Shown piece by piece: positions 15,032 through 44,057 of a stretch of DNA of 64,000 nt. A model generated the notes under the pieces. It saw nothing but the letters and a program-made list of their open reading frames with translations, had not been told where the DNA came from and ran no database searches. Within the stretch, counting starts at the first letter, position 1, and each line of letters starts with the position of its first letter. This stretch comes from a virus. The stretch spans positions 32,001-96,000 of IMG/VR virus record IMGVR_UViG_3300045988_107889. One strand, written 5' to 3'. The translations under genes and the position numbers were made by a program.

Positions 15032-15081
15032 TGGCAAAACCTCCTTTTAAATTTGAAATGTTTTCTATTGATTATGTTACT

Positions 15082-17449: not shown

Positions 17450-17559
17450 GTCGTTCCGGCGACTATAAACAGGCGTTAGGCCGGGAGCGTTCGCAGGTTA
17501 GGGCAAGCCCAACCTGCGAGGTCGCAGGAATAACATAGGTGGATTCTGTCTATGCCTGC

Positions 17560-17616: not shown

Positions 17617-18609
17617 ATGAGTAACCATACATATGTAGTCGGTGAATATACCGACTATGGTTATAAAGGTGGTGATGGTTTGTATAACGAAGATATTAAG
17701 CGGAATTTTTTGGATACGGAATGCAGTAGCTTGAAAAAGCAAAGAGATATTGCGAAAGTTTTTTCTTCTATCGCGTCGTTTGAGCAAGAGAATGGTCTAG
17801 ACATCGCTGAAATGGGCAAGAATTTGAGCGCGCAGGCTCTTGAACGTACTGGAATAAATGAGTATAGTGGAATTAGGAGTTATATTACTAGGTTAAGAGA
17901 GTATGCAAGATGGTGCGAAAAAAACAATATCTTCCCATCAATCCCCGGCGGGATTTTTGAAGTTTCTCCGGACGATGTGGATATTACAGATTCTCTAAAA
18001 GGGGTTTTGTTTAAAGACGAATTTGACTTGCTGGAGTCTATTAGATTAGTCCGTGACTTTGATTCTGGCTATCCAGAGGTTGCAGCCTTTTGTCTTTACT
18101 GGGTCGGTCTTACAAAAGACGAAGCAGTTTTGCTAAAAGACACTGACGTTGACTTGGAAAACAAGATCGTTTATGTTCATGACGGTATTGTTGCAGAAGA
18201 CTTTTCGGATGCCATTTGTGATGTATTAAACCGTTACCGTAATTGCAAATGGTCAACCCGGGCGAACGGAACTACACTCATGAGCGTTCGCAAGGATTTG
18301 TCTGTTGACACATTTCTTAAAAGGATGTTAACAGATGGTTCTAAAAAATTCGGTATGCCTGTAACAAAAACACAAATCACAGCACTATGTCAAGATGTGG
18401 TGACGGATTGTTCAGCACTTGGTCTCCCTAGTCGTCATACTTTTCAAAACGTCTGGCGGTGCGGTGGGTTCAATCGTATGTACAAGCTGGAACAATCCGG
18501 CGTGGATGTAATGAACCGCCCCACCATAGAAACGGTTTTTCGTGGAAAAAAGAATTACTACGATACACTAAGAATGTATCAATATTATAAAAAGGTCTTT
18601 GGTTTATAA
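17617..18609 (+). CDS. tyrosine-recombinase-like protein, possibly catalytically degenerate
   Basis: 330 aa. 'FCLYWVGLTKDEAVLLKDTDVDLENKIVYV' resembles box I but has T-K where Arg is expected. 'SRHTFQNVW' is HxxR-like, with a C-terminal 'YYDTLRMYQYY'. Confidence 0.6.
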   Translation: MSNHTYVVGEYTDYGYKGGDGLYNEDIKRNFLDTECSSLKKQRDIAKVFSSIASFEQENGLDIAEMGKNLSAQALERTGINEYSGIRSYITRLREYARWCEKNNIFPSIPGGIFEVSPDDVDITDSLKGVLFKDEFDLLESIRLVRDFDSGYPEVAAFCLYWVGLTKDEAVLLKDTDVDLENKIVYVHDGIVAEDFSDAICDVLNRYRNCKWSTRANGTTLMSVRKDLSVDTFLKRMLTDGSKKFGMPVTKTQITALCQDVVTDCSALGLPSRHTFQNVWRCGGFNRMYKLEQSGVDVMNRPTIETVFRGKKNYYDTLRMYQYYKKVFGL

Positions 18610-23571: not shown

Positions 23572-23648
23572 ACCAGCATAGTTTTAAATGGGAAAACAAC
23601 GGTCTCCAAAACCGTAGTTCTAGGTTCGAGTCTTAGTGCTGGTGCCAC
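23572..23648 (+). tRNA. tRNA-Trp(CCA)
   Basis: Acceptor ACCAGCA/TGCTGGT. Anticodon arm ACGGT-CTCCAAA-ACCGT. T arm CTAGG-TTCGAGT-CTTAG. Ends GCCA. Confidence 0.8.
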
Positions 23649-24053
23649 GTGCAAGTTTAATTGCACGGTGTGTAGTGTGAAAAAAGTCATATATTGCTCT
23701 ATGTATATAACCTCACGGCGTAAAAGAGGTTGACTGTCTGACCGCAGTTATTCCAGTGCAATTCTGGTTGCCGTACACGCTGCTCAAAGCGGGTGAAGAG
23801 GTGTGGCACACTCCTTCCGTGCCTCACTTATGACTTCAAGGCGGTGCAATTCCGCCTAGCAGCTCTCAATCGCTCTAGTTAACTGGTTCTGGGGCGAGGG
23901 TCAAAACCAGCAACCTAAACATTGATTGCAGACACCTGGTTAAGTACAGGCTAGGCAAGAAAGCTCTCAGGCACGGTTGGGCAACACAATCCAGCCCTAT
24001 CCTTTGGTTAGGCCGACTGATTGATAGGGCGGTTGTGGTTGCTGAACAAATAT

Positions 24054-24144
24054 CTCCCTGTAGCTAAATTGGTTATAGCTTCCAACTTATAATTGGAAGG
24101 CCCTCATAAGGTATATGGTGATTCGAATTCACCCAGGGAGACCA
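24054..24144 (+). tRNA. tRNA with anticodon UAU (nominally Ile) and a class II-like long variable arm
   Basis: Acceptor CTCCCTG/CAGGGAG. D arm GCTA-AATTGGTTA-TAGC. Anticodon arm TCCAA-CTTATAA-TTGGA. 19-nt variable region AGGCCCTCATAAGGTATAT. T arm GGTGA-TTCGAAT-TCACC. Ends ACCA. Confidence 0.65.
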
Positions 24145-24195
24145 CGATACCACGATAAAAATCTAATTCCATAAATAAGAAAGTGAGGAACTAAT

Positions 24196-24849
24196 ATGAA
24201 CAAAGAAACTATGACCGTCCATAAAGCTCTTGCGGAGCTGAAAATTTTGGACGCTAGAATTTTCAACGCCACTTCTGGCAAAACATTTGTCGCCGCGAAG
24301 AAGGTGAGCGACAAAAAGATCGGCGGTGTGTTGGTCGAAACCCTCAAGAAGGATATGAAGTCTGATTATCAGTCTGTTACGGACTTGATTGCTCGTCGGA
24401 CTGCCATTAAGAGAGCAGTTGTGCTCTCTAATGCCAAAGCTAAGGTAGTAATTGGTGGTGAGACCTATACTGTGGCAGAAGCTATTGAAATGAAGAACCA
24501 TGGCCTCATGGCAAAGAGAGACTTGCTGGATGTAATGGTTCGGCAGTATGAAAAGGCTCGTGCCGAGGTCGCCAAACACGAAGGCGAGTGGATTGAAGCG
24601 AAAGCCGAGCAATACATTATGAATTTCCTTCAGTCGCAGCCCAAAGAGGCCAAGACAACCAAGGATTCTGAGGTCGTTAAGCGGTTGAGAGAAGAGTATA
24701 TTGCCAACAATACGTATGAACTCATTGATCCGCTTGACATTGGTAATGAAATCAAGGTTTTGAGCGATTGGATTGACGCGTTTACTGCGGATGTAGATTC
24801 TCAGCTGTCTGTGTCCAATGCGACCACTACAATCACCGTAGAATACTAA
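24196..24849 (+). CDS. hypothetical coiled-coil protein embedded in the tRNA cluster
   Basis: 217 aa. SD GTGAGGA. No motif recognised with confidence. Confidence 0.7.
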   Translation: MNKETMTVHKALAELKILDARIFNATSGKTFVAAKKVSDKKIGGVLVETLKKDMKSDYQSVTDLIARRTAIKRAVVLSNAKAKVVIGGETYTVAEAIEMKNHGLMAKRDLLDVMVRQYEKARAEVAKHEGEWIEAKAEQYIMNFLQSQPKEAKTTKDSEVVKRLREEYIANNTYELIDPLDIGNEIKVLSDWIDAFTADVDSQLSVSNATTTITVEY

Positions 24850-25028
24850 AATAATCAACTTGCTGCAACCCGAAAACCTAAAACGGTAACCCATCGTGCT
24901 GACGGCACTTGGTTCGATGTAAAAATGAACAAATATGTGCCAACTACAAGGCAAACTTGAAATTTTGTGCTTGTAAAAAGATTGGGCGGTTAATCCAAAT
25001 CTCTTATAAAAAGAAGATATTTGCTGTA

Positions 25029-25190
25029 AAGCTCAAATTTCAAAGCTCGAATTTCAAAATTCAAGGCTCAAAGATCTTCAGAAGATTAAAGTTCAAGGGT
25101 CAACGTTCAATGGTTAAAGTTTTACAAAATCCTGGGTTAATGGTTTGGGTCAGTTATCAACGCCCACGGGTCAACCACCAGGCTGGGTTG
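25029..25190. repeat. degenerate short-period repeats
   Basis: GCTCAAATTTCAAA / GCTCGAATTTCAAA / ATTCAAGGCTCAAAG / GTTCAAGGGTCAACGTTCAA, followed by GGGTTAA..GGGTCA..GGGTCA..GGGTTG. Confidence 0.6.
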
Positions 25191-25205
25191 TAGCAAGTTC
25201 AATAT

Positions 25206-25290
25206 GCGGGATTGGCGGAATTGGTAGACGCATCGTGTTTAAGTCTCGATGTCGAAAGACGTAGGAGTTCGAGTCTCCTATCCCGTACCA
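25206..25290 (+). tRNA. tRNA-Leu(UAA)
   Basis: Acceptor GCGGGAT/ATCCCGT. Anticodon loop TTTAAGT. Variable arm TGTCGAAAGACGT. T arm AGGAG-TTCGAGT-CTCCT. Ends ACCA. Confidence 0.85.
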
Positions 25291-25439
25291 AAGAAAAGCC
25301 CATAGTTTGCGGACTATGACACCTGAAAAGTGGCGGTTTGCTTCTGGTAGACCGTAGTAGTGTGTTGACATCCTGGAAGAGACAGGAGTTCCCCTTTTTG
25401 ATCCCCCTTACATAGCTACCCCGCTTTGCGGGGTAGCGT

Positions 25440-25515
25440 GGCCGATTAGTTTAAATGGTAAAACGGCGGATTTGTACCCCGCAGATGTCGAGTTCGAGCC
25501 TCGCATTGGCCTCCA
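25440..25515 (+). tRNA. tRNA-Thr(UGU)
   Basis: Acceptor GGCCGAT/ATTGGCC. Anticodon loop TTTGTAC. T loop TTCGAGC. Ends TCCA. Confidence 0.8.
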
Positions 25516-25516
25516 T

Positions 25517-25590
25517 GCTACTATAGTTTAATGGTTGAACGGTTGTTTCGTAAGCAACAGGTTCCAGTTCGATTCTGGGTAGTAGCTCCA
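25517..25590 (+). tRNA. tRNA-Thr(CGU)
   Basis: Acceptor GCTACTA/TAGTAGC. Anticodon arm GTTGT-TTCGTAA-GCAAC. T arm TCCAG-TTCGATT-CTGGG. Ends TCCA. Confidence 0.85.
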
Positions 25591-25593
25591 TAT

Positions 25594-25668
25594 CTGGGTG
25601 TAGCGCAATGGAAGCGCTCCTGATTTGGGATCAGGAGGTTGTCAGTTCGAGCCTGACCACTCAGACCA
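25594..25668 (+). tRNA. tRNA-Pro(UGG)
   Basis: Acceptor CTGGGTG/CACTCAG. Anticodon arm CCTGA-TTTGGGA-TCAGG. T arm GTCAG-TTCGAGC-CTGAC. Ends ACCA. Confidence 0.85.
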
Positions 25669-25670
25669 AT

Positions 25671-25745
25671 GCAGGCGTAGTTCAACGGCTAGAACACCGG
25701 TCTTCCAAACCGGAAACGCGAGATCGGCACTCGTCGCCTGCTCCA
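25671..25745 (+). tRNA. tRNA-Gly(UCC)
   Basis: Acceptor GCAGGCG/CGCCTGC. Anticodon arm CCGGT-CTTCCAA-ACCGG. T arm GCGAG-ATCGGCA-CTCGT. Ends TCCA. Confidence 0.8.
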
Positions 25746-25851
25746 TATCAAGCAACAGAAAACGATTCTCCTACCTGTTATTGTTGATAAATCACCTCCT
25801 TTCTTTACATAGCCTGGAATGGCGTTAAACTCTGCTCTGCTTGATTTATAT

Positions 25852-25925
25852 AGCGCCGTAGCATAACGGTAATGCAACGGACTTTGACTCCGTAAACGGT
25901 AGTTCGACACTATCCGGCGCTGCCA
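25852..25925 (+). tRNA. tRNA-Gln(UUG)
   Basis: Acceptor AGCGCCG/CGGCGCT. Anticodon arm ACGGA-CTTTGAC-TCCGT. T arm GGTAG-TTCGACA-CTATC. Ends GCCA. Confidence 0.85.
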
Positions 25926-25983
25926 CGTTCGTTTTATACGGACACTTGCTTTCATTAACCGGCGGTACCACCGCCGGTAACAT

Positions 25984-26068
25984 GTGGGCGTGATGTAATT
26001 GGCAAACATGCGAGATTTAGGTTCTCGTGTCGAAAGATGTGCGGGTTCGAACCCCGTCGCCCACTCCA
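25984..26068 (+). tRNA. tRNA-Leu(UAG)
   Basis: Acceptor GTGGGCG/CGCCCAC. Anticodon arm CGAGA-TTTAGGT-TCTCG. Variable arm TGTCGAAAGATGT. T arm GCGGG-TTCGAAC-CCCGT. Ends TCCA. Confidence 0.85.
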
Positions 26069-26132: not shown

Positions 26133-27005
26133 ATGACAGTGACAGCTTATGAAGAATTGTTGAGCAAGTTGTTGTTCGAAGAACGGAACGGTGGACAGTT
26201 GGCGTATGCTTACGTGTCTCCGGAAATGGCGACGGGTTTGTTGGCTATGTCCGGCGGCAATCGTCCGATCAGTAAGAGCACTGTGAATAAGTACAAGTCC
26301 CATATGATGAATGGCACATGGGATGAAGATACTCCGACTGGCTTTATTATGTTTGATAAGGCTGGTGTTCTTATCGACGGGCATCACCGGCTCGAAGCAG
26401 TGAAGCGCTGCGGTAAGACAGTAAAGATGTTCTTCCTGTTCAATATGGAACGCAGTCCGTACATTGACCGGGGTAGGGCGAGAAGTGAAGCCGACGCTTT
26501 GTGTATGGCCGAGGGCGGAAACAGAGGAAAGATTTCTTCTTACAAGCGCTCGGTTGCAATCTGCATGGTGCTGAATGAGTTTAGTGCGAGGCACTTGGAG
26601 AATGAAGCTAAGAGAGCGGACATGATTTCGAAGCACATCGCTGAATTCTCCTGGGTTAATAGTTTCTTGAAGGTGAGACAGAGAAAACTTGGCACGGCTC
26701 CGGTCACAGCTGCCATGTATCTGGCGAAAGAAGCCGGAGCGAGCGATGTTAAGCTCGAATACTTCTGGAATGTTCTCCAGACTGGTTATGCTGAGTCTAG
26801 TTTGGATAGGCAGATTGTCCGCTTGAGAGATTGGATTAAGGATTCTACTATTGATGGCCGGTGCAAGCATTATCGTCACCGTGTGTTCTTGACGACCTCT
26901 TATGTGTTGTCCAGATGGTTGGACGGCAAGGAAACCAAAGGCGTTCCCGATCCTGAGTGCTTGGTTGTTTGGAACAACGGTCAGCAAAGAATTGATAACG
27001 CATAA
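26133..27005 (+). CDS. ParB/sulfiredoxin-like nuclease-domain protein
   Basis: 290 aa. 'NRPISKSTVNKYKSHMMNGTW......VLIDGHHRLEAV' is a ParB N-terminal-domain DGxHR box. SD TAGGAGG. Confidence 0.8.
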   Translation: MTVTAYEELLSKLLFEERNGGQLAYAYVSPEMATGLLAMSGGNRPISKSTVNKYKSHMMNGTWDEDTPTGFIMFDKAGVLIDGHHRLEAVKRCGKTVKMFFLFNMERSPYIDRGRARSEADALCMAEGGNRGKISSYKRSVAICMVLNEFSARHLENEAKRADMISKHIAEFSWVNSFLKVRQRKLGTAPVTAAMYLAKEAGASDVKLEYFWNVLQTGYAESSLDRQIVRLRDWIKDSTIDGRCKHYRHRVFLTTSYVLSRWLDGKETKGVPDPECLVVWNNGQQRIDNA

Positions 27006-27458: not shown

Positions 27459-27848
27459 ATGGAAATTATCGTATGTGGTAACGCAGTAACGCTCAAGAGT
27501 GCTTTCACTCTTGAAGAAATCAATCGCGCAGCTCTGTATCGGCCTAAGTCTGTACAGCTGCTGGACGAAGATGGCAACGCACTGTTTTACACTCTCGCTG
27601 GCGAGAGAGGAGTAGTAGCACCGACCGGTATTATCTATGAGGCTGAGTCTTGTGATGGCTCTGGTCGTGCGGTCGTAACAGTGAGTCTTATTACCGAAGC
27701 TGACCGTTCCGTACGTGAGGTTGTTGCCGAGAGATATGCTTCTGTTATCGAGAAGGTAGAAAAGATTGAAGCCCAGGTGCGCGAAGCGCTGGAAGAGATC
27801 GACGTTATGATGGCACGGGTCAGTTCCAAGATCGTAGTAGCTGGCTAA
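27459..27848 (+). CDS. hypothetical protein ending ...KIVVAG
   Basis: The ATG at 27459 has SD AAAGGAG (the ORF track starts at 27438). 129 aa with a C-terminal Gly. Confidence 0.7.
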   Translation: MEIIVCGNAVTLKSAFTLEEINRAALYRPKSVQLLDEDGNALFYTLAGERGVVAPTGIIYEAESCDGSGRAVVTVSLITEADRSVREVVAERYASVIEKVEKIEAQVREALEEIDVMMARVSSKIVVAG

Positions 27849-27889
27849 AACAAATAAGCATAGATGTAATAACAGAAAGGAAGTATAAC

Positions 27890-28129
27890 ATGATTATTGT
27901 TAATGTTCGTAGCACCACCCGGCGTTTTGATGGTCAGGCTGTAGATGAGAGCGTGGAAACCCCTCGTTCTCTGTTCGAGAAGATCGGAATTGAGTGCAGC
28001 CGTAGCGTAAATTCTCTTTCCGGCACGATTCTGACGCCTGATGATATGAGTTGCACTTTTGCCGAACTTGGTGCCGCTGGTGTTTGTACTCTGAGTGCTA
28101 TTGTTAAGGCGCAAGGTAACGCGATCTGA
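27890..28129 (+). CDS. small beta-grasp-sized protein (ubiquitin-like candidate)
   Basis: 79 aa. 'MIIVNVRS...' then 'LSGTILTPDDMSCTFAELGAAGVCTLSAIVKAQGNAI' resembles a ThiS/MoaD/Ub-like layout, with a Gly three residues from the end. SD GAAAGGAAG. Confidence 0.7.
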   Translation: MIIVNVRSTTRRFDGQAVDESVETPRSLFEKIGIECSRSVNSLSGTILTPDDMSCTFAELGAAGVCTLSAIVKAQGNAI

Positions 28130-28255
28130 TTCGAGTTAGCACAATCTACGAGGCCGGACAATGTCCGGCCTCGTACATAACACAGTGAGTTGCTGGGAGG
28201 GCATTCGGTTACGTCGGATGACCTGCCAAGAGTTCATAAAGAAAGGAGAAGATAT

Positions 28256-29671
28256 ATGTTTTCAAATTGTTTGAAGCGCAGTGAAGTTTTAGTGCTGGCC
28301 CCAGAGCTGGAGTCTGAGTTTTCTAATATTGCTGGCGACGGGACGTTCAAAGGCGATGACTTTGCGTTGGCAATGGCTCGGTTGTTTTTGAAGCCAAGAG
28401 TTCCGGCGGACGTGTGCATCACGGTTAGAGTGGTGGATTCTAATTGTGCTGATTGGATTACGTGGATAAAAGACAAAGAGCGTTTTTCGGAGGTGACTTC
28501 TCAAGACAACACAATTACATTTTGCGTGTGTGATAAGGTTAAGGCCGTAGAAACTTTAGTCAGTAATATGAAATGTGCGAGCAGTTGGAAAGAGAAGACG
28601 GCAAGAGAGCTGAATCTAATGAAAGAACGACTCGGTATCATACTGAGAATTTTCAGTAATGAAGAGAGGAAGAGTACGGTTGTCCTTACCGACGTGGATA
28701 ACTATGGCTCGTGGCATTACCTAGTGTGTCTTTTCAATGTATTCTGCCCATGGTACATTAAAGACAGGACTGAAGCGGAGTCAAAGTTTATTAAGATTCT
28801 GTCCAAAGAAGACTCCGGCATGAGTGTAATCTGTAAAGCGATGAACGATATGGTTGCCGCTGCTGTGGACGTGGCCTCAGCTAAAAAGAGATATTACCTT
28901 TATGGCTATGAGGGAAAGCTAAGGAACGTACAGAGGGAAAGATACACAAAGAAGATGGAGAGTGCAAGAAGTCAGATCAATAAATTGACGTCCGATTTGA
29001 GAGATTGGTATAGAGAATACGAAGGTTGGTCTTTGTTGGTGGCAGCAATTGACAACAGTAATGTTGAGAGCAAGAACGAGTTAATGGATTATTTTCTGTC
29101 GAACAAAAATGTGTCTGTTGAGAGCGGTGACAAAGATGGGAATATCGTATATGTTGTAACTGGTTATATGACACTGTTTGATCCAGAGATTGCGAGAGAG
29201 TACATCAACAATTGGTCGTCGATTTTTTATACGCAGTCTTCGTATGCGGGCCTGACAGAAAGTGATACTAAAAAGTTAATGACAGGGATTTTCATTGACT
29301 CTGATATCAAAGTAAGAATGTGTTCCGCATGGAGACTTTCTTTCGGAGGAGGGGTACTACCCATCGTGGCATATGGGTATGGCTGTGAATACAACAGCTA
29401 TCTCCCCAACACACACCTTGATAAATATGGTTGCATGGGGAGCTGGCAACAGGCGTTAGAGAAATCTTGCGACAAATGTGACTACGTTTATACGGTAGAC
29501 ACGACGTGTGCCGAAAGCGGGAATCTGAATCTTAGTGATACTGTCGTATTGAGATCATTCCTTGAAGAGTTGTTGAGAGAAGGCGCTGTAGTATTGGAGT
29601 TGCCGGATGGGCGAGTAGTTAATTACATCGACGCAATTAAATGGATAAAGGAGAATAAGAGCAATGAATAA
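28256..29671 (+). CDS. large hypothetical protein; C-terminal region has an E2/UBC-like 'PN-x7-C' motif
   Basis: The ATG at 28256 has SD AAAGGAGAAG. 471 aa. 'YLPNTHLDKYGCMGSW' has the same Asn-to-Cys spacing as HPN-x7-C of UBC folds. This is motif-level evidence only. Confidence 0.7.
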   Translation: MFSNCLKRSEVLVLAPELESEFSNIAGDGTFKGDDFALAMARLFLKPRVPADVCITVRVVDSNCADWITWIKDKERFSEVTSQDNTITFCVCDKVKAVETLVSNMKCASSWKEKTARELNLMKERLGIILRIFSNEERKSTVVLTDVDNYGSWHYLVCLFNVFCPWYIKDRTEAESKFIKILSKEDSGMSVICKAMNDMVAAAVDVASAKKRYYLYGYEGKLRNVQRERYTKKMESARSQINKLTSDLRDWYREYEGWSLLVAAIDNSNVESKNELMDYFLSNKNVSVESGDKDGNIVYVVTGYMTLFDPEIAREYINNWSSIFYTQSSYAGLTESDTKKLMTGIFIDSDIKVRMCSAWRLSFGGGVLPIVAYGYGCEYNSYLPNTHLDKYGCMGSWQQALEKSCDKCDYVYTVDTTCAESGNLNLSDTVVLRSFLEELLREGAVVLELPDGRVVNYIDAIKWIKENKSNE

Positions 29672-30350
29672 GGCAACTAATGCAACGGATTTGTTGGCTG
29701 CGACAAATCCGTGCAAAATCGTATACAGTAAGAAGGCATGGATGAAGACGTGTTTGCTTGTTATGAATAGGAATCTTGAGGTTGGATGGCACGGAGTTGC
29801 AAGAAGGTTGGAAAATCCAGCTGAGTTTATCGTGGAGGACGTCTTGGTATTCCCCCAGAAGGTCACGTCGGCAAGCACCGAACCTGAAGATGCGGACTAT
29901 GTGAACTGGCAGGATTCTCTTAACACGGAAATATTCAATAAGGTTCGGTTGTACGGGCATTCTCATGTGAACATGGGTGTCAGTCCATCTTCTACGGATA
30001 TAAAGTATAGAGCAGATTTGCTGACAGACGTTGATGATTTCTACGTCTTTCAGATTTTCAATAAGAAAGGCTACATATCCTCACAGGTTTATGATGTTAG
30101 AGAAGGCATCCTGTACGAAAGCGACAATGTGGAACTCGCAGTGGAACGATGGAACCCCGCTGTATATGATTTGTGCAGAGGGTTTTTCGATAACATTGAC
30201 CGGTTTGAGAAGGTGGACGTGCGTGATGTACAGGATGGAATCGAGTGGATCATGAACGCAGCATCCGAGTTTGAAAAATTCATGGAGGACGCAGATAAAA
30301 TTATTGATGAGCGGCCCGATTGGCGTGACGGTAAGATGTTAATTAAGTAA
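29664..30350 (+). CDS. JAB/MPN (JAMM) metalloprotease
   Basis: 'GHSHVNMGVSPSSTD' fits H-x-H-x7-S-x2-D exactly, with an upstream Glu in 'EFIVEDVLVFPQ'. The gene overlaps its upstream neighbour by 8 nt. Confidence 0.85.
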   Translation: MNKATNATDLLAATNPCKIVYSKKAWMKTCLLVMNRNLEVGWHGVARRLENPAEFIVEDVLVFPQKVTSASTEPEDADYVNWQDSLNTEIFNKVRLYGHSHVNMGVSPSSTDIKYRADLLTDVDDFYVFQIFNKKGYISSQVYDVREGILYESDNVELAVERWNPAVYDLCRGFFDNIDRFEKVDVRDVQDGIEWIMNAASEFEKFMEDADKIIDERPDWRDGKMLIK

Positions 30351-30523
30351 AAAACATATGTGCCTGTACAGATATGTTAAATTACATATCACTCTTGTCG
30401 GAACGAGGGAGTAACAAATGGCTGTGTCGCTTCAAAAGTTTTCCGCTCTGGGAGTAGGAAAACTTTTTGAACTTAAACAGCTGGTTAGCTGTTCAGAGGT
30501 ACATAAGAAAGGAGAAGACCGGT

Positions 30524-30865
30524 ATGGAGGTATATTGTGTGATAACAGAAACAGACCAGGGTATTGATTTATCCGGTGTTTATTGGAATTTGGAGAGTGC
30601 GGTAGAACACGTGAAACGTAGGTTTTATTCAGTGTTTCAAGAATACGTCGATGATGGATGCGAAATGATTGAAGGTGACAATTTTAATGCTCCAGATAAA
30701 TACGGCGCGACAATTTATCTGGAACCGGACGACTATTGGATTTGGCGTGTTTACTTTGGCGAAGTAAGAGATGAGTGCCTGGTGAGTGGGCCGAACGAAG
30801 TGGTGCCGCCGCTAGAAGGGAAGCGTGTTGACGAAGAGACGCTTATGAATTGTTTGCTGCTATAG
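30524..30865 (+). CDS. CLLL-tail family protein 1
   Basis: 113 aa from the ATG with SD AAAGGAG. Ends '...VDEETLMNCLLL'. Confidence 0.7.
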   Translation: MEVYCVITETDQGIDLSGVYWNLESAVEHVKRRFYSVFQEYVDDGCEMIEGDNFNAPDKYGATIYLEPDDYWIWRVYFGEVRDECLVSGPNEVVPPLEGKRVDEETLMNCLLL

Positions 30866-30875
30866 AGGTGATATG

Positions 30876-31214
30876 ATGTTTGAACTTGGGCAGAAAGTTA
30901 CGCTTGCCCCAAAGTCATGGGATGAATTTCGGGGTGCTTTAATGGAGTTGTTTGCGAGAGAGATGATAGTAGATGAATTCTCAACTACTCATAAAGAAAT
31001 GATATTGGTTACAGGGGTGCTTTATGGGGAAGGCGATTCTTGGTTTAACGACCTTCTAATAAATGGAGGTGAGATTATCAAGTGCTATGCTACTGGTTGG
31101 TATATGGTGAATATAAATGGAGTAAAACTGAAATTTCACGAAAGCGTGTTGTGTCTGAAAGAAGACATGAGGTCAGTTGATGAAAAATTGTTCATAAGTT
31201 GCTTATTATTGTGA
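30876..31214 (+). CDS. CLLL-tail family protein 2
   Basis: 'MFELGQKVTLAPKSWDEF...' ends 'VDEKLFISCLLL'. SD GAGGTG lies 5 nt upstream. Paralogue of protein 3. Confidence 0.75.
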   Translation: MFELGQKVTLAPKSWDEFRGALMELFAREMIVDEFSTTHKEMILVTGVLYGEGDSWFNDLLINGGEIIKCYATGWYMVNINGVKLKFHESVLCLKEDMRSVDEKLFISCLLL

Positions 31215-31223
31215 GGTGATATA

Positions 31224-31556
31224 ATGTTTAGACCTGGGCAGCGGGTTGAGCTTATTCCCAAAACGTGGGATGAATTTAATGATAACTTACGGGCGGTATT
31301 TCCGAATGGAGCTGTGTCGCAGAGCGTAGACATCATCACAAACGAAAGATTTATATACGCCGACGATGTGATGTACGCGGAGGGCGATCCTTACCTCAGA
31401 GAGTTTATAAGAGACGGCGGCGAGATCGTTGAGTATGAACTTGGCGGTTGGTACAGGATAAGGGTTAGCAAAAAAGAGATGTCTTTCTATAAAAGTGTGT
31501 TGCGGTTAAAGCAATCTATTGATGAGCAGGTTTTTATGAACTGTTTGTTGTTGTGA
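31224..31556 (+). CDS. CLLL-tail family protein 3
   Basis: 'MFRPGQRVELIPKTWDEF...' ends 'IDEQVFMNCLLL'. SD GAGGTG lies 5 nt upstream. Confidence 0.75.
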   Translation: MFRPGQRVELIPKTWDEFNDNLRAVFPNGAVSQSVDIITNERFIYADDVMYAEGDPYLREFIRDGGEIVEYELGGWYRIRVSKKEMSFYKSVLRLKQSIDEQVFMNCLLL

Positions 31557-31570
31557 TAAGAGGTGGCGCT

Positions 31571-31840
31571 TTGAATATCGTAGCTGGTCAGAAATTTAGA
31601 GTTAAAAAGTGGTCAGAAAGCAATTCTGACCGCTTTTTTACCAGTAGCCATGAAAAGTATTGCGGGAAAACATTAACGGTGAGAGAAAAAGGTATACATA
31701 GAGGTGTGAGCGGTTACGTTCGCCCGATAATTTGGGCGTACGAATGTAGAGAGGTCGTGTGGTTTTCATGGATGATAGAACCTATTGAGGACCGCCGTCG
31801 TGTTAATGAAAATCTGTTTCTAAGCTGCTTGTTGTTGTAG
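31571..31840 (+). CDS. CLLL-tail family protein 4
   Basis: TTG at 31571 lies 5 nt after GAGGTG (the ORF track starts at 31553). '..GQKFRVKKW...WMIEPIEDRRRVNENLFLSCLLL'. Confidence 0.7.
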   Translation: MNIVAGQKFRVKKWSESNSDRFFTSSHEKYCGKTLTVREKGIHRGVSGYVRPIIWAYECREVVWFSWMIEPIEDRRRVNENLFLSCLLL

Positions 31841-31847
31841 GTGATGT

Positions 31848-32189
31848 ATGAAATTTGAAGATATGTATGTTGGGCAAAAGATTAGGGTACGGACTTTAGA
31901 CGACATGGTATCTGACCCTGATTTAACGTATAGACTTGATAAGTCTTTTAAAGTAGCGACGATCAGGTCTAAGGATAATACAACTCATTTGAGCTTAATT
32001 CGTAAGACAATGCGTTATTGTGGTACAGCTGTGACGGTGTTCTCATTAACAGAAAATCTTGCACCAACAGAGTGGAGGCATGTTTATATAGAAGAAGATA
32101 ATCAATATTACCCATGGGAGTCTTGGATGTTTGAACCGATTGAAAGTAAGGTTGATAGTGATGTATTCTTGAGTTGTTTAATGTTATGA
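31848..32189 (+). CDS. CLLL-tail family protein 5
   Basis: '..VGQKIRVRTLDDM...WMFEPIESKVDSDVFLSCLML'. Paralogue of protein 4. Confidence 0.75.
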   Translation: MKFEDMYVGQKIRVRTLDDMVSDPDLTYRLDKSFKVATIRSKDNTTHLSLIRKTMRYCGTAVTVFSLTENLAPTEWRHVYIEEDNQYYPWESWMFEPIESKVDSDVFLSCLML

Positions 32190-32202
32190 GGAGGCATGAA
32201 AA

Positions 32203-32871
32203 ATGAATTTGTCGAAGAGTATTGAGTTCTTTAACCCCACAAAGGTCAAAGAAAGAGTACATATCATCGGCTGTGGCGCGTCCGGTTCCACTGTAGCCGA
32301 ATTGTTGGCAAGAGCTGGGCTTGAGAAGGTTACTCTGTACGATTTTGACAAGGTTGAGTCGCACAATATCGCGAATCAGATGTTCAATGATAGCGACATC
32401 GGTAGAAATAAAGCTGAAGCCGTGAAAGATATGATGTTAAGTATCAATCCTGATGCAAATGGTATTGAAGTAGTTCAGGAGGGGTATACCAACCAGCGTC
32501 TGTCCGGCTATGTCTTCCTTATGGTGGACAACATTGATCTCCGCAGAAAAATTTGCGAAGAAAATGCTAGAAACCCGTATATCAAAGCTGTGTTTGATAC
32601 CAGACTTCGGCTGACGGACGCGCAACACTTTGCGGCTGACTGGAGTTCTAGTGCGATGGTTGAAAATCTGATTAACTCCATGCAGTTTACTCAAGAGGAA
32701 GCTCTGGCTGAAACTCCTCGATCTGCATGTAACCTGGAGCTTAGTATCGCTCCTTCCGTGCGGATGATTTGCTCTTGTGCAGTAGCAAACTTCATGAATT
32801 TTGTGAATGGGCGTTCGATCAAGAAGATAGTTTTGATCGACGCCTTTGATTTTACTATGGAAGCATATTAA
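32203..32871 (+). CDS. ThiF/MoeB/HesA-family E1-like adenylyltransferase
   Basis: 'RVHIIGCGASGSTVAELLARAGLEKVTLYDFDKVESHNIANQMF...DIGRNKAEA' is a Rossmann GxGxxG plus the D.D.V..sN..RQ box. 222 aa. SD GAGGAGG. Confidence 0.85.
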   Translation: MNLSKSIEFFNPTKVKERVHIIGCGASGSTVAELLARAGLEKVTLYDFDKVESHNIANQMFNDSDIGRNKAEAVKDMMLSINPDANGIEVVQEGYTNQRLSGYVFLMVDNIDLRRKICEENARNPYIKAVFDTRLRLTDAQHFAADWSSSAMVENLINSMQFTQEEALAETPRSACNLELSIAPSVRMICSCAVANFMNFVNGRSIKKIVLIDAFDFTMEAY

Positions 32872-32879
32872 ATATTAGT

Positions 32880-33320
32880 TGTTTGAGGTGGAAATTTCGT
32901 GTCGCCACGCGCCTTAATGGCTAAAGAGATGCAGGGGAATGGCACGCCTGCTAACAACCAATTCAATCTAAATATCTGAAAGCACTTTCTATTTAAAAAA
33001 AATAGAAACTCTTACCGGAACGGAAGAGTGGCACATCGTCCGAAAGAGGAACCCCGCTGCGTGCGATAGCAAACCAATACTTGGTGCCCTCCAAGAAGGC
33101 TTAACACCCCGGTGGCATCTTCTCTGATGAGAAGCATCGCCCGAACAACAGGAAAAACCAGAAGGATATTCGTTCGACAGGTTCAACATCCGCCACCAGC
33201 AGGGGTATCCGGCAAACAATAAACGCCAAGTCAGGGATTTCACCGTCTCAGACGACGACAAGCTCCGCGATGAGCATCTCGTACTGACATCCAAATCCAT
33301 ATATAGTTTCAGATAAAAGC
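32880..33320 (+). ncRNA. ORF-free, T-poor A/C-rich segment B directly upstream of the RT (candidate RT-associated ncRNA)
   Basis: It contains an A-loop hairpin TTTCTATT-..A8..-AATAGAAA (32986-33008), CCGGAACGG (33015-23) and the box CATCCGCCACCAGC (33187-33200). It is on the same strand as the RT and ends at the RT's SD. The only ORF here is an SD-less antisense one. Confidence 0.45.
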
Positions 33321-33332
33321 AAGGAGAATAAT

Positions 33333-34499
33333 ATGATTTATGTAACAGCAAGAATTACAGAGCCGTATAAGCAGATTTCTTTAGAGGATATTATGTCTGC
33401 GCTGCTTCAAGATAAACATGTGAGGGAATCGAGATCTCTATATACTAGAACAGTTACATATGAGAGACTGCCCGAGAGAATCCTGGCAGGGTTTGACACG
33501 GGGAAAAAGATTGAGCTGCTGAGAGCATTTAACAAAAAGCATCAGGAACTGCTTGAAAGCGATCTTCATACGCATTACCACAAGTTTTTTATCCCGAAAA
33601 AGAGCGGCGGCATGAGAGAGATTAACGCGCCGGACGACGAGCTGATGAATTGTCTGCGAGAGCTAAAACTGCTGTTAGAATCTGAGTTTTATGCGAGCAG
33701 CCACGCCGCTGCGTACGCTTATGTCAAAAACAGAAGCAGTGTAGATGCAGCAAAAGTCCATCAGTGGAACAAGAGTAAGTGGTATTTAAAGACTGACATC
33801 AGCGGTTTCTTTCCCAACACTACTCCAAAGTTTGTATGGAACGCGCTGTCTACAATTTATCCGTTCTGTCTCATTATGGAGCACAAGAACGGGAGAGAGG
33901 AGCTTAAAAAAGCTCTGTCGCTCTGTTTCTTAGACGGCGGCCTGCCTATGGGGACACCGATCAGCCCGATGCTGACCAACCTGATTATGATTCCATTTGA
34001 TTTTGAGTTCAGTAAGTTTCTGCGCAGCCTACAGGACCCAGCGAACAGCCCTGATAGAAAGGGTAGAAGGTTCGCGTATACCAGATATGCTGACGACATG
34101 AATATTAGCTGTGGTATTGAATTTGATAAGGGGTTTATTATTAGAAAGATTGAAGAGCTATTTAGGCTGTTTGGAGCTAGTTATATCATTAAAGACGAGA
34201 AGACTCATTACGGCCCGTCGTATCATAAGAATTGGGTACTCGGTGTGATGATCAACAAGGACAACCAGATCACGATTGGGTATAAGAAGAAGCGCAACTT
34301 CGAGGCGATGCTTTTCAATTACGCGAAGGACAGAAAGAGCGGAACTTATTGGCCTCTTGAGCAACTGCAATATGTGCTCGGTCTTATGAGCTACTATCGA
34401 ATGGTTAACAGAGGAAGTATTGATGGAGTTATCACTCGCTATAGTCAGAAGTTTGGCTTTGATATTGAAGCCACGATGAAGAAGGATCTCAAAAACTAA
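33333..34499 (+). CDS. retron-type (or Abi/DRT-like) reverse transcriptase
   Basis: 'FFIPKKSGGMREINAPDDEL', 'KTDISGFFPNT', 'GLPMGTPISPMLTNL', 'YTRYADDMNIS' and 'NWVLGVMINKDNQITIG' correspond to RT motifs 1-7, including YADD and a VTG-like box. SD AAGGAGAA. Confidence 0.85.
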   Translation: MIYVTARITEPYKQISLEDIMSALLQDKHVRESRSLYTRTVTYERLPERILAGFDTGKKIELLRAFNKKHQELLESDLHTHYHKFFIPKKSGGMREINAPDDELMNCLRELKLLLESEFYASSHAAAYAYVKNRSSVDAAKVHQWNKSKWYLKTDISGFFPNTTPKFVWNALSTIYPFCLIMEHKNGREELKKALSLCFLDGGLPMGTPISPMLTNLIMIPFDFEFSKFLRSLQDPANSPDRKGRRFAYTRYADDMNISCGIEFDKGFIIRKIEELFRLFGASYIIKDEKTHYGPSYHKNWVLGVMINKDNQITIGYKKKRNFEAMLFNYAKDRKSGTYWPLEQLQYVLGLMSYYRMVNRGSIDGVITRYSQKFGFDIEATMKKDLKN

Positions 34500-36697: not shown

Positions 36698-36955
36698 ATG
36701 AACTTCTATTTGTTAGATGTAAAAAGCGTAGTTAATGTAGACGGCGTTGACGTGCCGTTTGATTATATTAATACATATTTGGATCCTAACGAAGCATATA
36801 TGAGGGGGTTACAACAGAGTTTCAATGAAGACGTGCTGGAAGTGTCCGTACACAGATGGGTTTTGGAACAAGACGGCAATCAGAGACATGATGGTGGCGA
36901 TGACAGCATCCTGTATCGTTTTCTGAACGACAACCATAGAAAGCTGAGGGAATGA
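36698..36955 (+). CDS. hypothetical protein
   Basis: 85 aa. SD AGCAGGTG. Confidence 0.65.
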   Translation: MNFYLLDVKSVVNVDGVDVPFDYINTYLDPNEAYMRGLQQSFNEDVLEVSVHRWVLEQDGNQRHDGGDDSILYRFLNDNHRKLRE

Positions 36956-43042: not shown

Positions 43043-43187
43043 TAGGTGTTTTATGTACAATTTTTATGATGATTATAAAAACCCTATTTCGGAGATTGAA
43101 CAGGAACAAATACATACCCAAGCACAGAGTTTGAGCTGGTAATGCGTAGAAAGACTAGTGAAGATAGGTAAAGACGAGGTGAATATT

Positions 43188-44057
43188 ATGTCGGTAAAAG
43201 ATGCGCTCGGCGACAGAATGAAAGCGTACTACGAAAGCATTCCGAAGACAAAGCTAATGCGAAGAACGCCGGTTGCGATCAGACTGGATGGTAAAGCGTT
43301 TCACACTTTCACAAAAGGTTTTCAAAAGCCTTTTGATGATGTGCTGATCAAATCAATGCAAGATACAATGAAGTACCTCTGTGAGAACATCCAGGGTGTG
43401 GTGTTTGGCTACACTCAATCCGATGAAATCACGTTAATTCTTGTAGACTATAAGAATCTTAATTCTGCTGCTTGGTTTGATTATGAGGTGCAGAAAATGT
43501 GCAGCGTGGCAGCGAGCATGGCTACCCTTGCGTTTAACAAAGCGTTTGCAAAGCGGTACGACGAGTGGGGTAGAGAACAGTTCCCGTGCTGGGATGAAGG
43601 TGGCACAAATGATCCTATTGATAAAGATCTGCTGAAGCTGAGTTGGACTTATGGTTATGCCGAAGGTAGAGGGGCTATGTTCGATGCAAGAGTGTTCAAC
43701 GTCCCAAAAGAAGAAGTGGCGAACCTCATCTATTGGAGGCAGCTGGATGCTATCAGAAATAGCATTCAAATGGTTGGTAGAGCAAACTTTAGCCATCGAG
43801 AACTAGATCGTAAGTCTTGCAGCGATATCCAGGATATGCTGATGACAGAGAAGGAAATTAACTGGAATGACTTTCCTGCGTGTCAAAAGAGAGGTAGTTG
43901 CTGCGTTAAAATGTATCAAGTTGGTGAACAGGAATGGAAGAGTCACGCCGAAGATGAGTTGATGCCTAGTGGAAGAACTAAGTGGGAAGTGATTGATGAG
44001 GTTCCTATCTTCAAAGGGAGCGAAAGATGTTACATAGAGAAATTGATTTACTTGTAA
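43188..44057 (+). CDS. Thg1-like 3'-5' nucleotidyltransferase (tRNA-His guanylyltransferase family)
   Basis: 'LGDRMKAYYE....RTPVAIRLDGKAFHTFTKGF.KPFD...' and 'FGYTQSDEITLIL' match the Thg1/TLP N-terminal signature. The ATG lies 6 nt after GAGGTG. Confidence 0.8.
   Translation: MSVKDALGDRMKAYYESIPKTKLMRRTPVAIRLDGKAFHTFTKGFQKPFDDVLIKSMQDTMKYLCENIQGVVFGYTQSDEITLILVDYKNLNSAAWFDYEVQKMCSVAASMATLAFNKAFAKRYDEWGREQFPCWDEGGTNDPIDKDLLKLSWTYGYAEGRGAMFDARVFNVPKEEVANLIYWRQLDAIRNSIQMVGRANFSHRELDRKSCSDIQDMLMTEKEINWNDFPACQKRGSCCVKMYQVGEQEWKSHAEDELMPSGRTKWEVIDEVPIFKGSERCYIEKLIYL

Follow-up and report, generated by a model that had tools for sequence, protein, structure and literature searches.

A shared C-terminal tail on five small proteins encoded between JAB and E1 genes in a putative gut phage is a candidate modular docking peptide

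Introduction

Short C-terminal peptides that dock or target proteins are well known. Docking motifs of this kind include the beta-clamp peptides QL[SD]LF and QLxLxL, the SSB tip DDDIPF and the T4 gp45-binding tails of gp43, gp33 and gp55. In the poxvirus ankyrin-PRANC/F-box proteins, as in cellular F-box and SOCS-box proteins, variable bodies carry a constant C-terminal adaptor to a ubiquitin ligase. Encapsulin cargo-loading peptides and the T4 capsid-targeting sequence are terminal peptides with a flexible linker that lead proteins to an HK97-type shell, and the E. coli ssrA tag reads AANDENYALAA. In type II CBASS, Cap2 (E1-E2) and Cap3 (JAB) act on the C-terminus of the CD-NTase, and the Bil and Bub systems of bacteria are ubiquitin-like (Ubl) (PMC10097602, PMC10557695, PMC11601596).

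Here we analyzed 64,000 nucleotides (the window) of the IMG/VR record IMGVR_UViG_3300045988_107889, which derives from an uncultured phage of ~100 kb whose host is probably among the gut Clostridia. Five small proteins encoded between a JAB gene and an E1 gene share a C-terminal tail. Like the clamp, SSB and gp45-type motifs, the tails are short, C-terminal, predicted to be exposed, acidic and then hydrophobic, and carried by unrelated bodies, and by analogy one common pocket may be proposed for both. Two versions from related phages, D-I-K-L-L-F-G and E-D-I-S-M-L-F, approach the hexapeptide clamp pattern, but the conserved Gln is missing and the version in the window, F-x-[NS]-C-L-L-L, lies outside the consensus. 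With the PRANC and F-box families the array has in common tandem paralogues, divergent binding-type bodies, a constant C-terminal docking element and an association with a ubiquitin-type conjugation system, which here is one of gene neighbourhood only. Unlike the F-box, which is folded and ~40 residues long, the phage motif spans ~12 residues, and the ligase would be prokaryotic and phage-encoded, with no recognizable E3.

The tails also resemble ssrA-type degrons, since both are exposed two-part C-terminal peptides that could give several proteins one fate, but no phage version ends in LAA and the tags diverge strongly between clades. Encapsulin and T4 targeting peptides are likewise short terminal peptides behind a flexible linker on unrelated proteins; however, the tail genes lie in a replication/accessory region and their sequence is unlike known cargo-loading peptides. 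The CBASS, Bil and Bub systems and the cassette around the array alike combine a prokaryotic-type E1 with a JAB protein, and the cassette E1 scores on Cap2-type models. The cassette differs in being phage-borne and linked to a reverse transcriptase (RT), in having a separate ubiquitin-fold protein, in having neither a CD-NTase nor a recognizable E2 domain, and in tails that end in Leu rather than Gly or Ala. Literature searches returned nothing relevant on the cassette or on phage families with a shared tail, and found no description of a phage lineage in which as many as 14 small accessory proteins, unrelated in other respects, bear a single clade-specific tag at the C-terminus.

Results

The array at positions 30524-32189 comprises five co-oriented ORFs, P1 to P5, with a JAB/JAMM peptidase gene on one side and a ThiF-type E1 gene on the other (Table 1). 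A preliminary description of the window had listed five ORFs of 89-113 aa, each behind an AGGTG-type Shine-Dalgarno (SD) sequence. The ORFs and their lengths stand, and all five are real genes; the AGGTG-type signal is present before P2-P5, whereas P1 has AAGGAG ~9 nt upstream. P4 likely begins at a TTG, judging from its position 5 nt past GAGGTG, rather than at the GTG at 31553 of the mechanically called ORF, which would give 95 aa; its homologues P0056 and P0058 begin MNIV.GQKF. Stop-to-start gaps range from 7 nt (P1-P2 and P4-P5) to 14 nt (P3 to the TTG of P4). Because of this tight spacing, and because no excess of promoter-like or terminator-like signals was found inside the array, it is probably one transcription unit.

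Table 1. Features of the array and the surrounding cassette (positions in the window).
Feature	Positions	Strand	Description	Evidence
p136	27459..27848	+	First cassette gene	phmmer, 32/34 loci
Ubl79	27890..28129	+	Ubiquitin-fold (beta-grasp) protein	AF2, Foldseek
p493	28190..29671	+	Conserved cassette protein	Found in 34/34 loci
JAB/JAMM metallopeptidase	29664..30350	+	Motif HSHVNMGVSPSSTD (HxHx7Sx2D)	Translation; 34/34 loci
P1	30524..30865	+	113 aa; own body class, Pro-rich linker, tail VDEETLMNCLLL	ORF translation
P2	30873..31214	+	113 aa; P2/P3 body class, tail VDEKLFISCLLL	ORF translation
P3	31224..31556	+	110 aa; P2/P3 body class, tail IDEQVFMNCLLL	ORF translation
P4	31571..31840	+	89 aa from TTG; short SH3-like body, tail VNENLFLSCLLL	ORF translation
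P5	31848..32189	+	113 aa; predicted SH3/Tudor-like double beta-barrel body, tail VDSDVFLSCLML	AF2, Foldseek
E1-like adenylating enzyme, ThiF family	32203..32871	+	222 aa, adenylation domain only	PF00899 E=5e-24
Rfam 'skipping-rope' RNA motif	32878..32958	+	E1-RT spacer	50.3 bits, gathering score 36.7
Retron-type reverse transcriptase	33333..34499	+	Last cassette gene	RVT_1 E=2.4e-13; 32/34 loci

The array lies within a six-gene cassette (p136, a ubiquitin-fold protein, p493, JAB, E1 and a retron-type RT) that was found at more than 50 loci. In several clades p136 is fused behind the Ubl. The AF2 model of Ubl79 (pLDDT 84.9) has the topology bb-a-bb-(a)-b, and Foldseek matched it to NEDD8, ubiquitin and ISG15 at a probability of 1.00 with TM scores of 0.62-0.69. 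Nearly every locus has Ubl79 in synteny with E1 and JAB, and the Ubl79 family numbers 1927 clusters compared with 49 for the tail proteins. The C-terminus of Ubl79 reads ..VKA[DQ][NG]A(I), not GG. In p493, an alignment shows His409 and Cys415 to be invariant within 'PN.H.....C.G', and profile searches gave no match in Pfam or PDB sequences; hhalign against three E2 sequences placed this motif on HPN..ICLD at a probability of 0.06%, which is not significant. The JAB protein carries, beside its metal-binding motif, an upstream Glu in EFIVED, and its match to family models is weak (PADLOC JAB E=0.021, no Pfam match). The E1 scored 85 bits on PF00899 (cut-off 28.1), its GxGxxG motif reads IIGCGASGS, and the models closest to it in NCBIfam and PADLOC are those of ThiF and the Cap2-type E1. 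The RT matched NF038233 (E=9e-48) and PADLOC retron RT models including RT_II-A, and scored 163 bits on retron_St85_RT, below the cut-off of 235. The skipping-rope RNA did not recur at gathering score in seven other clades.

A common C-terminal tail had been proposed for all five proteins, and it is indeed present and longer than first described. The ends are TLMNCLLL (P1), LFISCLLL (P2), VFMNCLLL (P3), LFLSCLLL (P4) and VFLSCLML (P5), and the conserved stretch covers 12 residues, [VI][DN][ES]x[h][FL][h][NS]CL[LM]L. Among 13 tails from the window and loci L001-L003, Cys is encoded by TGT in seven and TGC in six, Leu by TTG, TTA, CTG and CTA, and all three stop codons follow the tails. This synonymous variation bears out the earlier statement that the tail is conserved as protein and therefore is not a DNA repeat, and at the level of codons it shows selection acting on the protein. 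Forty-one of 49 homologue clusters have C[LM][LMS]L as their end, and in these 41 the residues C-4, L-3 and L-1 never vary; across the P4/P5 family the tail hardly changes, although bodies are 33-49% identical to P5. Chance origin of the shared tail is excluded. In the window, no further ORF of 50 aa or more has a C-h-h-h ending, and the phage's own polymerase, ligase and SSB are without the tail. A 33-aa ORF at 36825 ends in CIVF, without the remainder of the motif. When 2.9 million viral contigs were scanned with a degenerate DNA pattern, an in-ORF tail turned up solely in the three contigs of the window clade; this is an undercount because the pattern misses codon choices of the P2 and P4 types. 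As modelled by AF2, the tail of P5 (residues 101-113) forms a short detached helix with a pLDDT of ~52, compared with 80-90 for the body, and it is thus predicted to be exposed behind a flexible linker.

The bodies that carry this tail fall into three classes. When the last 12 residues were cut off, BLAST linked P2 to P3 (E=3e-22) and P4 to P5 (E=7e-5), supporting the pairwise paralogy seen earlier, and left P1, P2/3 and P4/5 unlinked to one another (E>0.3), so that P1, previously called divergent, has its own body class. By these comparisons the tail is a module on three body classes without detectable mutual similarity. P1 homologues P0023-P0047 retain the tail, and P0253-255 and L047:8506-8748 have a P1-like body without linker or tail. 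Chimeras of P2 and P3 occur among the homologues, P0002 being an example. The body of P5 is modelled as all-beta and SH3/Tudor-like (pLDDT 81.5); its best Foldseek matches, 53BP1 Tudor and PetP/SH3, are weak (E>=0.01), and the search against PDB and BFVD gave only such SH3/Tudor-type matches and no functional lead. This body family comprises 87 clusters at 50% identity. No family was found for the paralogues in Pfam and PHROGs (all five), PADLOC (P1, P2 and P5) or NCBIfam (P2 and P5), with P5 alone giving weak matches to phrog_17705 and PetP. Among INPHARED phages, the array region had no megablast match, and tblastn with a tail-bearing family member likewise returned nothing. Other members of the SH3-like body family bear other tails, namely VANDEDIKLLFG, ATDDEISVLLS, LFGFLLS, VDSDQFLSFMSND and FAAMLGI, and some end straight after ..WMFE.

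Every CLLL-tailed homologue with a readable context sits between JAB and E1, and the linkage to these genes on which the preliminary description had staked its reading therefore holds wherever it can be seen. At most cassette loci JAB abuts E1 and no tail family lies within 10 kb. In L070, whose E1 is 91% identical, a P1-like gene that lacks the tail is all that occupies the JAB-E1 slot; in L047, a sister clade (E1 66% identical), a P5-like tail gene lies there, and a P1-like gene directly follows E1. Independently of these, an unrelated 165-aa tail-bearing gene lies in the JAB-E1 gap of L027. Tail genes abut the cassette in L015, L030, L008 and L026, and the cassette was within 10 kb of tail genes in five of six unbiased look-ups. 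L049 carries six tail genes, with neither a ThiF nor an RVT gene within 10 kb of them. The recurring link between tail genes and cassette is not what one would expect of neutral 'accessory genes', and it counts against reading the array in that way.

Tails in other clades have other sequences. The P4/P5-type body occurs there with the tag versions LEEIL, DDLI, DEDIKLLFG and FAAMLGI; a locus often carries 5-14 such genes, which usually lie close to the cassette. Thirteen to 14 genes end in ..LE[ED][IV]L in L015, 11 in [VL][DS]DLI in L030, 7-11 in D[DE][DE]IxxLL[FS] in L046, L071 and L074, four in FxxMLG[IV] in L047 and six in LF.FLL in L049; L026 has four tail genes and L027 three to four. In L008 the tmRNA tag and the tail family are unlike each other. 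Tail versions are thus clade-specific and uniform within one genome, and the uniformity could come partly from gene conversion. Judged by eye and from the shared body family (P5 against L027:19532, E=1.7e-4; P5 against L047:7468, E=3.9e-6), the CLLL tail would be the equivalent of these other versions.

Discussion

On our reading the tail is a short linear motif for docking or recognition, used as a module, borne by an accessory array and not by substrates of the E1; we give this explanation as a whole a probability of roughly 60%. A fast-turning tandem array of small accessory genes would have been inserted at the JAB-E1 junction of the cassette and would be co-transcribed with its Ubl, E1, JAB and RT genes. 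Each protein is modular and consists of a small folded body, a flexible, mostly acidic or Pro-rich linker and the ~12-residue C-terminal motif, which would be the form taken here by an 'acidic linker plus hydrophobic PhixxPhiPhi(x)-COOH' tag that related uncultured Clostridia gut phages place on many small proteins. The exposed tail most likely docks into one common partner, where it would probably take the shape of a short amphipathic helix or strand, and different bodies would thereby share one destination or fate, either a single machine or one route of recognition or turnover. Since the versions differ between clades and are uniform per genome, the partner would be co-evolving, and is then probably phage-encoded, or else the tails self-associate; this points away from a universally conserved host site, which is less favoured. 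We infer the docking role and the nature of the partner purely from anatomy. The generic alternative of the preliminary description, a shared recognition, degradation or localization signal, fits a modular tail that sits on a flexible linker and unrelated bodies and that homologous bodies of other clades carry in other versions or lack.

Through the tag, a large part of the 'dark matter' of gut phages becomes directly accessible to experiment, and one tail-peptide pull-down could reveal the destination of a whole set of proteins. Tag genes recur in or beside the widespread Ubl-E1-JAB-RT cassette, so that the role of the tag may show that of the cassette. If tag and cassette are coupled, the pair would make up the first ubiquitin-like system of a phage to work with modular client or adaptor proteins.

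The partner could also be the cassette itself, with the tail as a non-covalent docking motif that is SIM/AIM-like toward Ubl79 or binds p493, E1 or JAB; this is possible, though we consider it unlikely. Tails that plug a changeable set of small binding proteins, SH3/Tudor-like and others, into a phage Ubl machine (Ubl79, p493, JAB and E1, with a link to the RT) are an equally tentative proposal, as is the view that the bodies are targets to be Ubl-tagged or de-tagged, or interchangeable receptors bringing host or phage targets to the machinery. The position of all CLLL genes within the operon, between JAB and E1, argues for such a role, as do the P5-like tail gene and the P1-like gene of L047, the unrelated gene in the same slot of L027 and the arrays that abut or lie near the cassette in several clades. 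In addition, the known Ubl-binding motifs SIM and LIR/AIM likewise combine an acidic run with Phi-x-x-Phi, and the predicted SH3/Tudor-like bodies would be typical binding modules. However, most cassette loci have no tail family within 10 kb and L070 has none, the six tail genes of L049 stand apart from ThiF and RVT genes, and neighbourhood is weak evidence in phages, where gene order is kept by descent. If the tails did serve the cassette, they would form a prokaryotic counterpart of F-box-style interchangeable receptors, or mark a defined set of Ubl-tagged clients, and clade-specific tail versions would co-evolve with the conjugation machine.

Rather doubtful is a C-terminal degron, in which the acidic stretch and non-polar end would lead to a host AAA+ protease of the ClpXP, ClpCP, FtsH or Lon type and the accessory protein set would have a common short, timed lifetime. 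The C-termini are predicted to be exposed and flexible and are non-polar, and some versions, such as VANDEDIKLLFG, are bipartite in an ssrA-like format, acidic and then hydrophobic. Non-polar C-terminal residues reportedly determine proteolysis. Against this reading, the tails end in LLL or LML and other versions in LLFG, LLS, DLI or EIL, none of them in L-A-A-COOH or similar. Furthermore, the sites that host proteases recognize are conserved, in contrast to tags that vary strongly from one phage clade to its close relatives, and 12 conserved residues with an invariant Cys exceed the needs of a generic non-polar degron.

As one of two readings, the preliminary description took P1-P5 for alternative substrates or modifiers of the E1; the E1 would adenylate their C-terminal carboxylate and JAB would process it, much as with the CD-NTase C-terminus in type II CBASS or MccA with MccB. 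Such a role now looks highly improbable, even with the tail genes embedded between JAB and E1 and with an E1 whose N-terminal part scores best against Cap2-type models, for which the substrate is a non-Ubl protein tail. The cassette has its own canonical ubiquitin-fold protein, present in nearly all loci with the E1, and Ubl79 is expected to be the cognate substrate; since the adenylation role falls to Ubl79, the tail is probably not the C-terminus that the E1 adenylates. The only body modelled among P1-P5, that of P5, is SH3/Tudor-like instead of beta-grasp, and the tails, which are hydrophobic and predicted to be helical, end in C-L-[LM]-L with no Gly in the last 12 residues. Co-occurrence runs in one direction, in that CLLL proteins adjoin an E1, but L070 and most cassette-bearing phages have the E1 and no tail protein, and the cassette can do without them. 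A widespread frameshift allele also strips the tail from the gene adjoining E1.

That the tail has no function of its own, and is a footprint of duplication or gene conversion or else a DNA or RNA element such as a recombination site or a device for translational coupling, is barely credible. Shuffled junctions do point to recombination in or near the tails, but the amino acids stay invariant under synonymous codon variation, the tail sits on bodies without detectable homology and is far more conserved than they are across the 41 clusters, and gaps of 7-14 nt are too short for an attC-like site. Least credible of all is a CaaX-type lipidation signal (C-L-L-L) or other Cys-based modification site, a resemblance raised in the preliminary description from the Cys at -4 and the three aliphatic residues, invariant in 41 clusters, which fails because the aligned position is Met in L047 (FAAMLGI) and Phe, Leu or Ile elsewhere in the same body family; among the window ORFs scanned (13 in Pfam, the five paralogues and eight others, and seven in NCBIfam and PADLOC) no CaaX protease was matched and, as already noted in that description, no prenyltransferase, and protein prenylation is not known from bacteria.

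Two further origins of the array were rejected. An origin by fission from JAB, whose C-terminus is longer in other clades, was not supported, as phmmer detected no similarity; integron-like cassettes do not accord with spacers of 7-14 nt that hold only an SD sequence and with recombinase genes far from the array. The array is turned over through recombination at its tails. One tail-plus-SD junction joins differing neighbours in the window, L001, L002 and L003, and copy number varies from 0 to 6, with truncated and frameshifted copies among them.

Five tandem genes share a terminal peptide tag

The five small genes between JAB and E1 (P1 to P5) are real and share a terminal peptide tag, here called the tail. 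All five ORFs of the preliminary description are present on the plus strand. Stop-to-start gaps among them are 7 to 14 nt, each with an AGGTG-type Shine-Dalgarno sequence, and P1 is preceded by AAGGAG rather than by a sequence of this type. With the last 12 residues removed, the bodies of P2 and P3 are 35% identical (E=3e-22) and those of P4 and P5 match at E=7e-5; no body similarity was detected among the P1, P2/3 and P4/5 classes.

The conserved end reads [VI][DN][ES]-x-h-[FL]-h-[NS]-C-L-[LM]-L, which is longer than the version first described. In a set of 13 tails (window plus three close relatives), TGT encodes Cys seven times and TGC six times, Leu is encoded by TTG, TTA, CTG and CTA, and all three stop codons are used. 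Conservation therefore lies in the protein and not in the DNA, and the tail is selected at the protein level, in line with the earlier view that it is not a DNA repeat. Among window ORFs of 50 aa or longer, none besides P1-P5 has a C-terminal Cys followed by three hydrophobic residues; the sole extra match, a 33-aa ORF ending CIVF, shows nothing else of the motif. When the viral collection was scanned with a degenerate DNA pattern, the tail turned up within an ORF nowhere but in three contigs, all of the window clade. In an AF2 model of P5, a confident all-beta body with weak fold matches of the SH3/Tudor type is followed by 13 low-confidence residues in a short detached helix; the tail is exposed and modular.

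Positions of features in the window and in related loci (phage contigs or MAGs, L-numbers)
Feature	Position	Strand	Remarks
P1	30524-30865	+	ORF
P2	30873-31214	+	ORF
P3	31224-31556	+	ORF
P4	31571-31840	+	TTG start 5 nt past GAGGTG; mechanical ORF from GTG at 31553
P5	31848-32189	+	ORF
Cassette, six genes	27459-34499		p136, Ubl, p493, JAB, E1, spacer, retron-type RT
Skipping-rope RNA	32878-32958		Rfam; directly past E1 stop, ~375 nt ahead of RT start
Tyrosine recombinase (Phage_integrase)	656-1681	-
Tyrosine recombinase (Phage_integrase)	14141-15037	-
Third recombinase-like gene	17617-18609	+	MrpR core-binding domain only
GIY-YIG/NUMOD3 homing endonuclease	5872-6624	-
Pistol self-cleaving ribozyme	17449-17526		Rfam RF02679, 66.9 bits
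tRNA cluster and Thg1-like tRNA-His guanylyltransferase	23572-26068 and 43158-44057		nine tRNAs incl. 91-nt tRNA-Ile(UAU)
DNA polymerase gene, split	55974-60090		group I intron RF00028 at 57895-58206
Ubl-p136 fusion, example	L006:6462-7082
Frameshift allele	L002:9652-10023; L003:9652-10023		clusters P0038-P0043, P0046
Tail genes, L015	L015:526-17930		13-14 genes ending ..LE[ED][IV]L
Tail genes, L030	L030:4796-15835		11 genes ending [VL][DS]DLI
Tail genes, L046, L071, L074	L046:7426-12824; L071:9257-12488; L074:7889-12027		7-11 genes ending D[DE][DE]IxxLL[FS]
Tail genes, L047			four genes ending FxxMLG[IV]
Tail genes, L049	L049:1734-10685		six genes ending LF.FLL (e.g. LFGFLLS)

Tail versions differ between phage clades

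The P4/P5 body, used as a profile in an exhaustive search, returned 87 clusters at 50% identity, mostly ~100-aa phage proteins of no known function (phrog_7488, phrog_17705). Many of these homologues continue into an acidic linker and then a hydrophobic end (VANDEDIKLLFG, VASDEDIRLLFS, ATDDEISVLLS, PDGLFGFLLS, VDSDQFLSFMSND or FDGVAFAAMLGI), and others terminate directly behind the body. The tail sequence varies by clade; inside each genome it is uniform and is carried by several body types. L015, L030, L046, L071, L074 and L049 hold 6-14 small tail genes per 20 kb, with bodies of several unrelated kinds and acidic-plus-hydrophobic ends such as LEEIL, DDLI, DEDIKLLFG and LFGFLLS. In the sister clade L047 (E1 66% identical), the JAB-E1 interval holds a P5-like gene whose tail is FAAMLGI, and a P1-like gene without a tail comes after E1. 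When F-A-A-M-L-G-I is aligned with F-L-S-C-L-M-L, the Met of L047 stands opposite the Cys of the window. Invariance of this Cys thus reflects the hydrophobic residue chosen by one clade, and the likeness to a CaaX box remarked on earlier loses its basis.

The observation is thus wider than first reported, with versions of the tag in further phage clades, and the CLLL form is confined to the window clade, where ORFs carrying it always lie in the JAB-E1 interval. The window, L001 and L035 each hold five of them; L037 and L038 hold three to four, L002 two and L003 one. Some further copies are truncated or frameshifted. A frequent allele of the last paralogue has a 1-nt insertion, one additional T in a T-run, by which the tail is swapped for ..FELFNAIGRYENEFVEEY and the ORF reads into the E1 start with an overlap of 22 nt. 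The same tail-plus-Shine-Dalgarno junction adjoins different neighbour genes in different genomes and P2/P3 chimeras occur among the homologues; genes are thus gained and lost through recombination in the tails. In L070 (E1 91% identical), the lone gene in the JAB-E1 slot is P1-like, encodes 94 aa and has no linker or tail (L070:6001-6285), and no CLLL-tailed ORF was found across 12 kb of this locus. JAB directly adjoins E1 in most other clades, so the cassette works without any need of the tail proteins.

The neighbouring cassette encodes its own ubiquitin-like protein

Around relatives of E1 the genes keep one order (p136, a ~78-aa protein, p493 of ~450-500 aa, JAB, E1, a spacer and a retron-type RT), which is constant in >50 phage or MAG loci. 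By phmmer, all 34 viral loci examined contain p493, JAB and E1, while p136 and the RT were detected in 32 of them, with the sequence of the RT-negative loci (L002 and L003) stopping within ~1.2 kb downstream of E1. E1 is a ThiF-family adenylation domain (PF00899, E=5e-24) and JAB has a complete JAMM motif, HSHVNMGVSPSSTD. The 79-aa cassette protein has a beta-grasp fold (AF2 pLDDT 84.9) and among known structures matches NEDD8, ubiquitin and ISG15 best (probability 1.00); its family comprises 1927 clusters at 90% identity. The same operon thus provides E1 and JAB with a conventional partner. This ubiquitin-like protein (Ubl) is fused ahead of p136 via a conserved ..VKADNAA/xIKIAG.. junction in L005, L006, L007, L011, L013, L014, L024 and L025, and the free form ends in ..VKADNA(A), not GG. 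The fusion looks like a polyprotein with a candidate peptidase site, perhaps for JAB.

The p493 protein (28190-29671, 493 aa in the window) matched no known family. It contains an invariant His409 and Cys415 in 'PN.H.....C.G' (alignment A4), a pattern similar to the HPN...C active site of E2 enzymes; a profile comparison aligns exactly there, although not significantly. The skipping-rope RNA, reportedly an orphan motif of Weinberg et al. 2017, could be part of the non-coding RNA of the RT, and at gathering score it was absent from seven other cassette-bearing clades.

Possible function of the tail

The tail is best read as a short linear docking or recognition peptide (probability about 0.6), which retains the common signal proposed in the preliminary description. 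It would serve a single common partner that co-evolves with it, either a phage-encoded protein or the tails themselves binding each other. Such a partner fits better than a conserved host pocket because the tails differ sharply between clades and are uniform inside a genome. Among known systems, the nearest are client-shared C-terminal docking peptides (clamp-binding and SSB-tip motifs, T4 gp45-binding tails), degrons at the C-terminus, peptides for cargo loading, and multigene families of viruses whose constant end docks on a ligase (poxvirus ANK/PRANC); the tail has the defining sequence of none of them. Our literature searches yielded no report of a Ubl/E1/JAB system tied to an RT, nor any account of the cassette or of comparable tag families. 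The tag offers clean, testable access to many uncharacterised gut-phage proteins, and may lead to the function of the unstudied ubiquitin-like/RT cassette.

Non-covalent coupling of the tail to this cassette is conceivable but rather unlikely. Three clades have tail genes in the JAB-E1 slot, including that of L027 with an unrelated 165-aa protein ending ..EDISMLF, tail arrays adjoin the cassette in L008, L015, L026 and L030, and the cassette was at most 10 kb away in 5/6 unbiased look-ups. However, gene order is common to these phages by descent, which makes neighbourhood weak evidence, and L049 and the many tail-free cassettes speak against obligate coupling. A role as degron is doubtful to a slightly greater degree, as the format is plausible but no tail version has an end like a known ClpX tag. 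The other earlier proposal, that P1-P5 are direct E1 substrates, is very probably wrong, since the cassette supplies its own ubiquitin-like protein and occurs without tail proteins in most other clades and in L070. CaaX lipidation, given the Met of L047, and a purely DNA-level origin are both nearly excluded. P1-P5 were also considered as ubiquitin-like modifiers and rejected, as the P5 model shows another fold and the five have neither a Gly end nor obligate co-occurrence with E1.

Phage genome and host

The source is an uncultured ~100-kb phage, probably of Clostridia. Relatives are IMG/VR phage contigs of ~85-120 kb, and others are contigs binned with gut/rumen Clostridia MAGs (Ruminococcus, Lachnospiraceae, Oscillospiraceae); no close cultured phage relative was found. 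The window carries a pistol ribozyme, nine tRNA genes and a DNA polymerase gene interrupted by a group I intron, and besides this polymerase it supplies its own ligase, primase-helicase, anaerobic ribonucleotide reductase, SSB and ERF recombinase. A 212-aa ORF without a Pfam match (58260-58898), between the intron core and the second polymerase exon, may be a homing endonuclease. The ribozyme is flanked by a minus-strand gene block on one side and the plus-strand recombinase-like gene on the other. Two tyrosine recombinases, this third recombinase-like gene and a homing endonuclease occur in one 64-kb stretch of a genome that looks lytic.

A ParB-like protein (26133-27005; phrog_5931; DGHHRLEA motif) is encoded shortly ahead of the cassette, in the window clade only. 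Its pairing with ThiF is reminiscent of the ParB/ThiF 'PRTRC' cassettes of conjugative elements; NCBIfam PRTRC models gave no match save a weak E1 score of 35 bits against a cut-off of 145. L008 encodes a phage tmRNA (L008:15327-15745) with the predicted tag AVEDTPEKQFSL, whose end is unlike the usual ..ALAA tags and also unlike the tail family of L008 itself. Additional orphan structured RNAs among these phages are DUF3800-XI, just upstream of the cassette in L024 (L024:6346-6393), and RAGATH-16 in L031 (L031:1132-1203).
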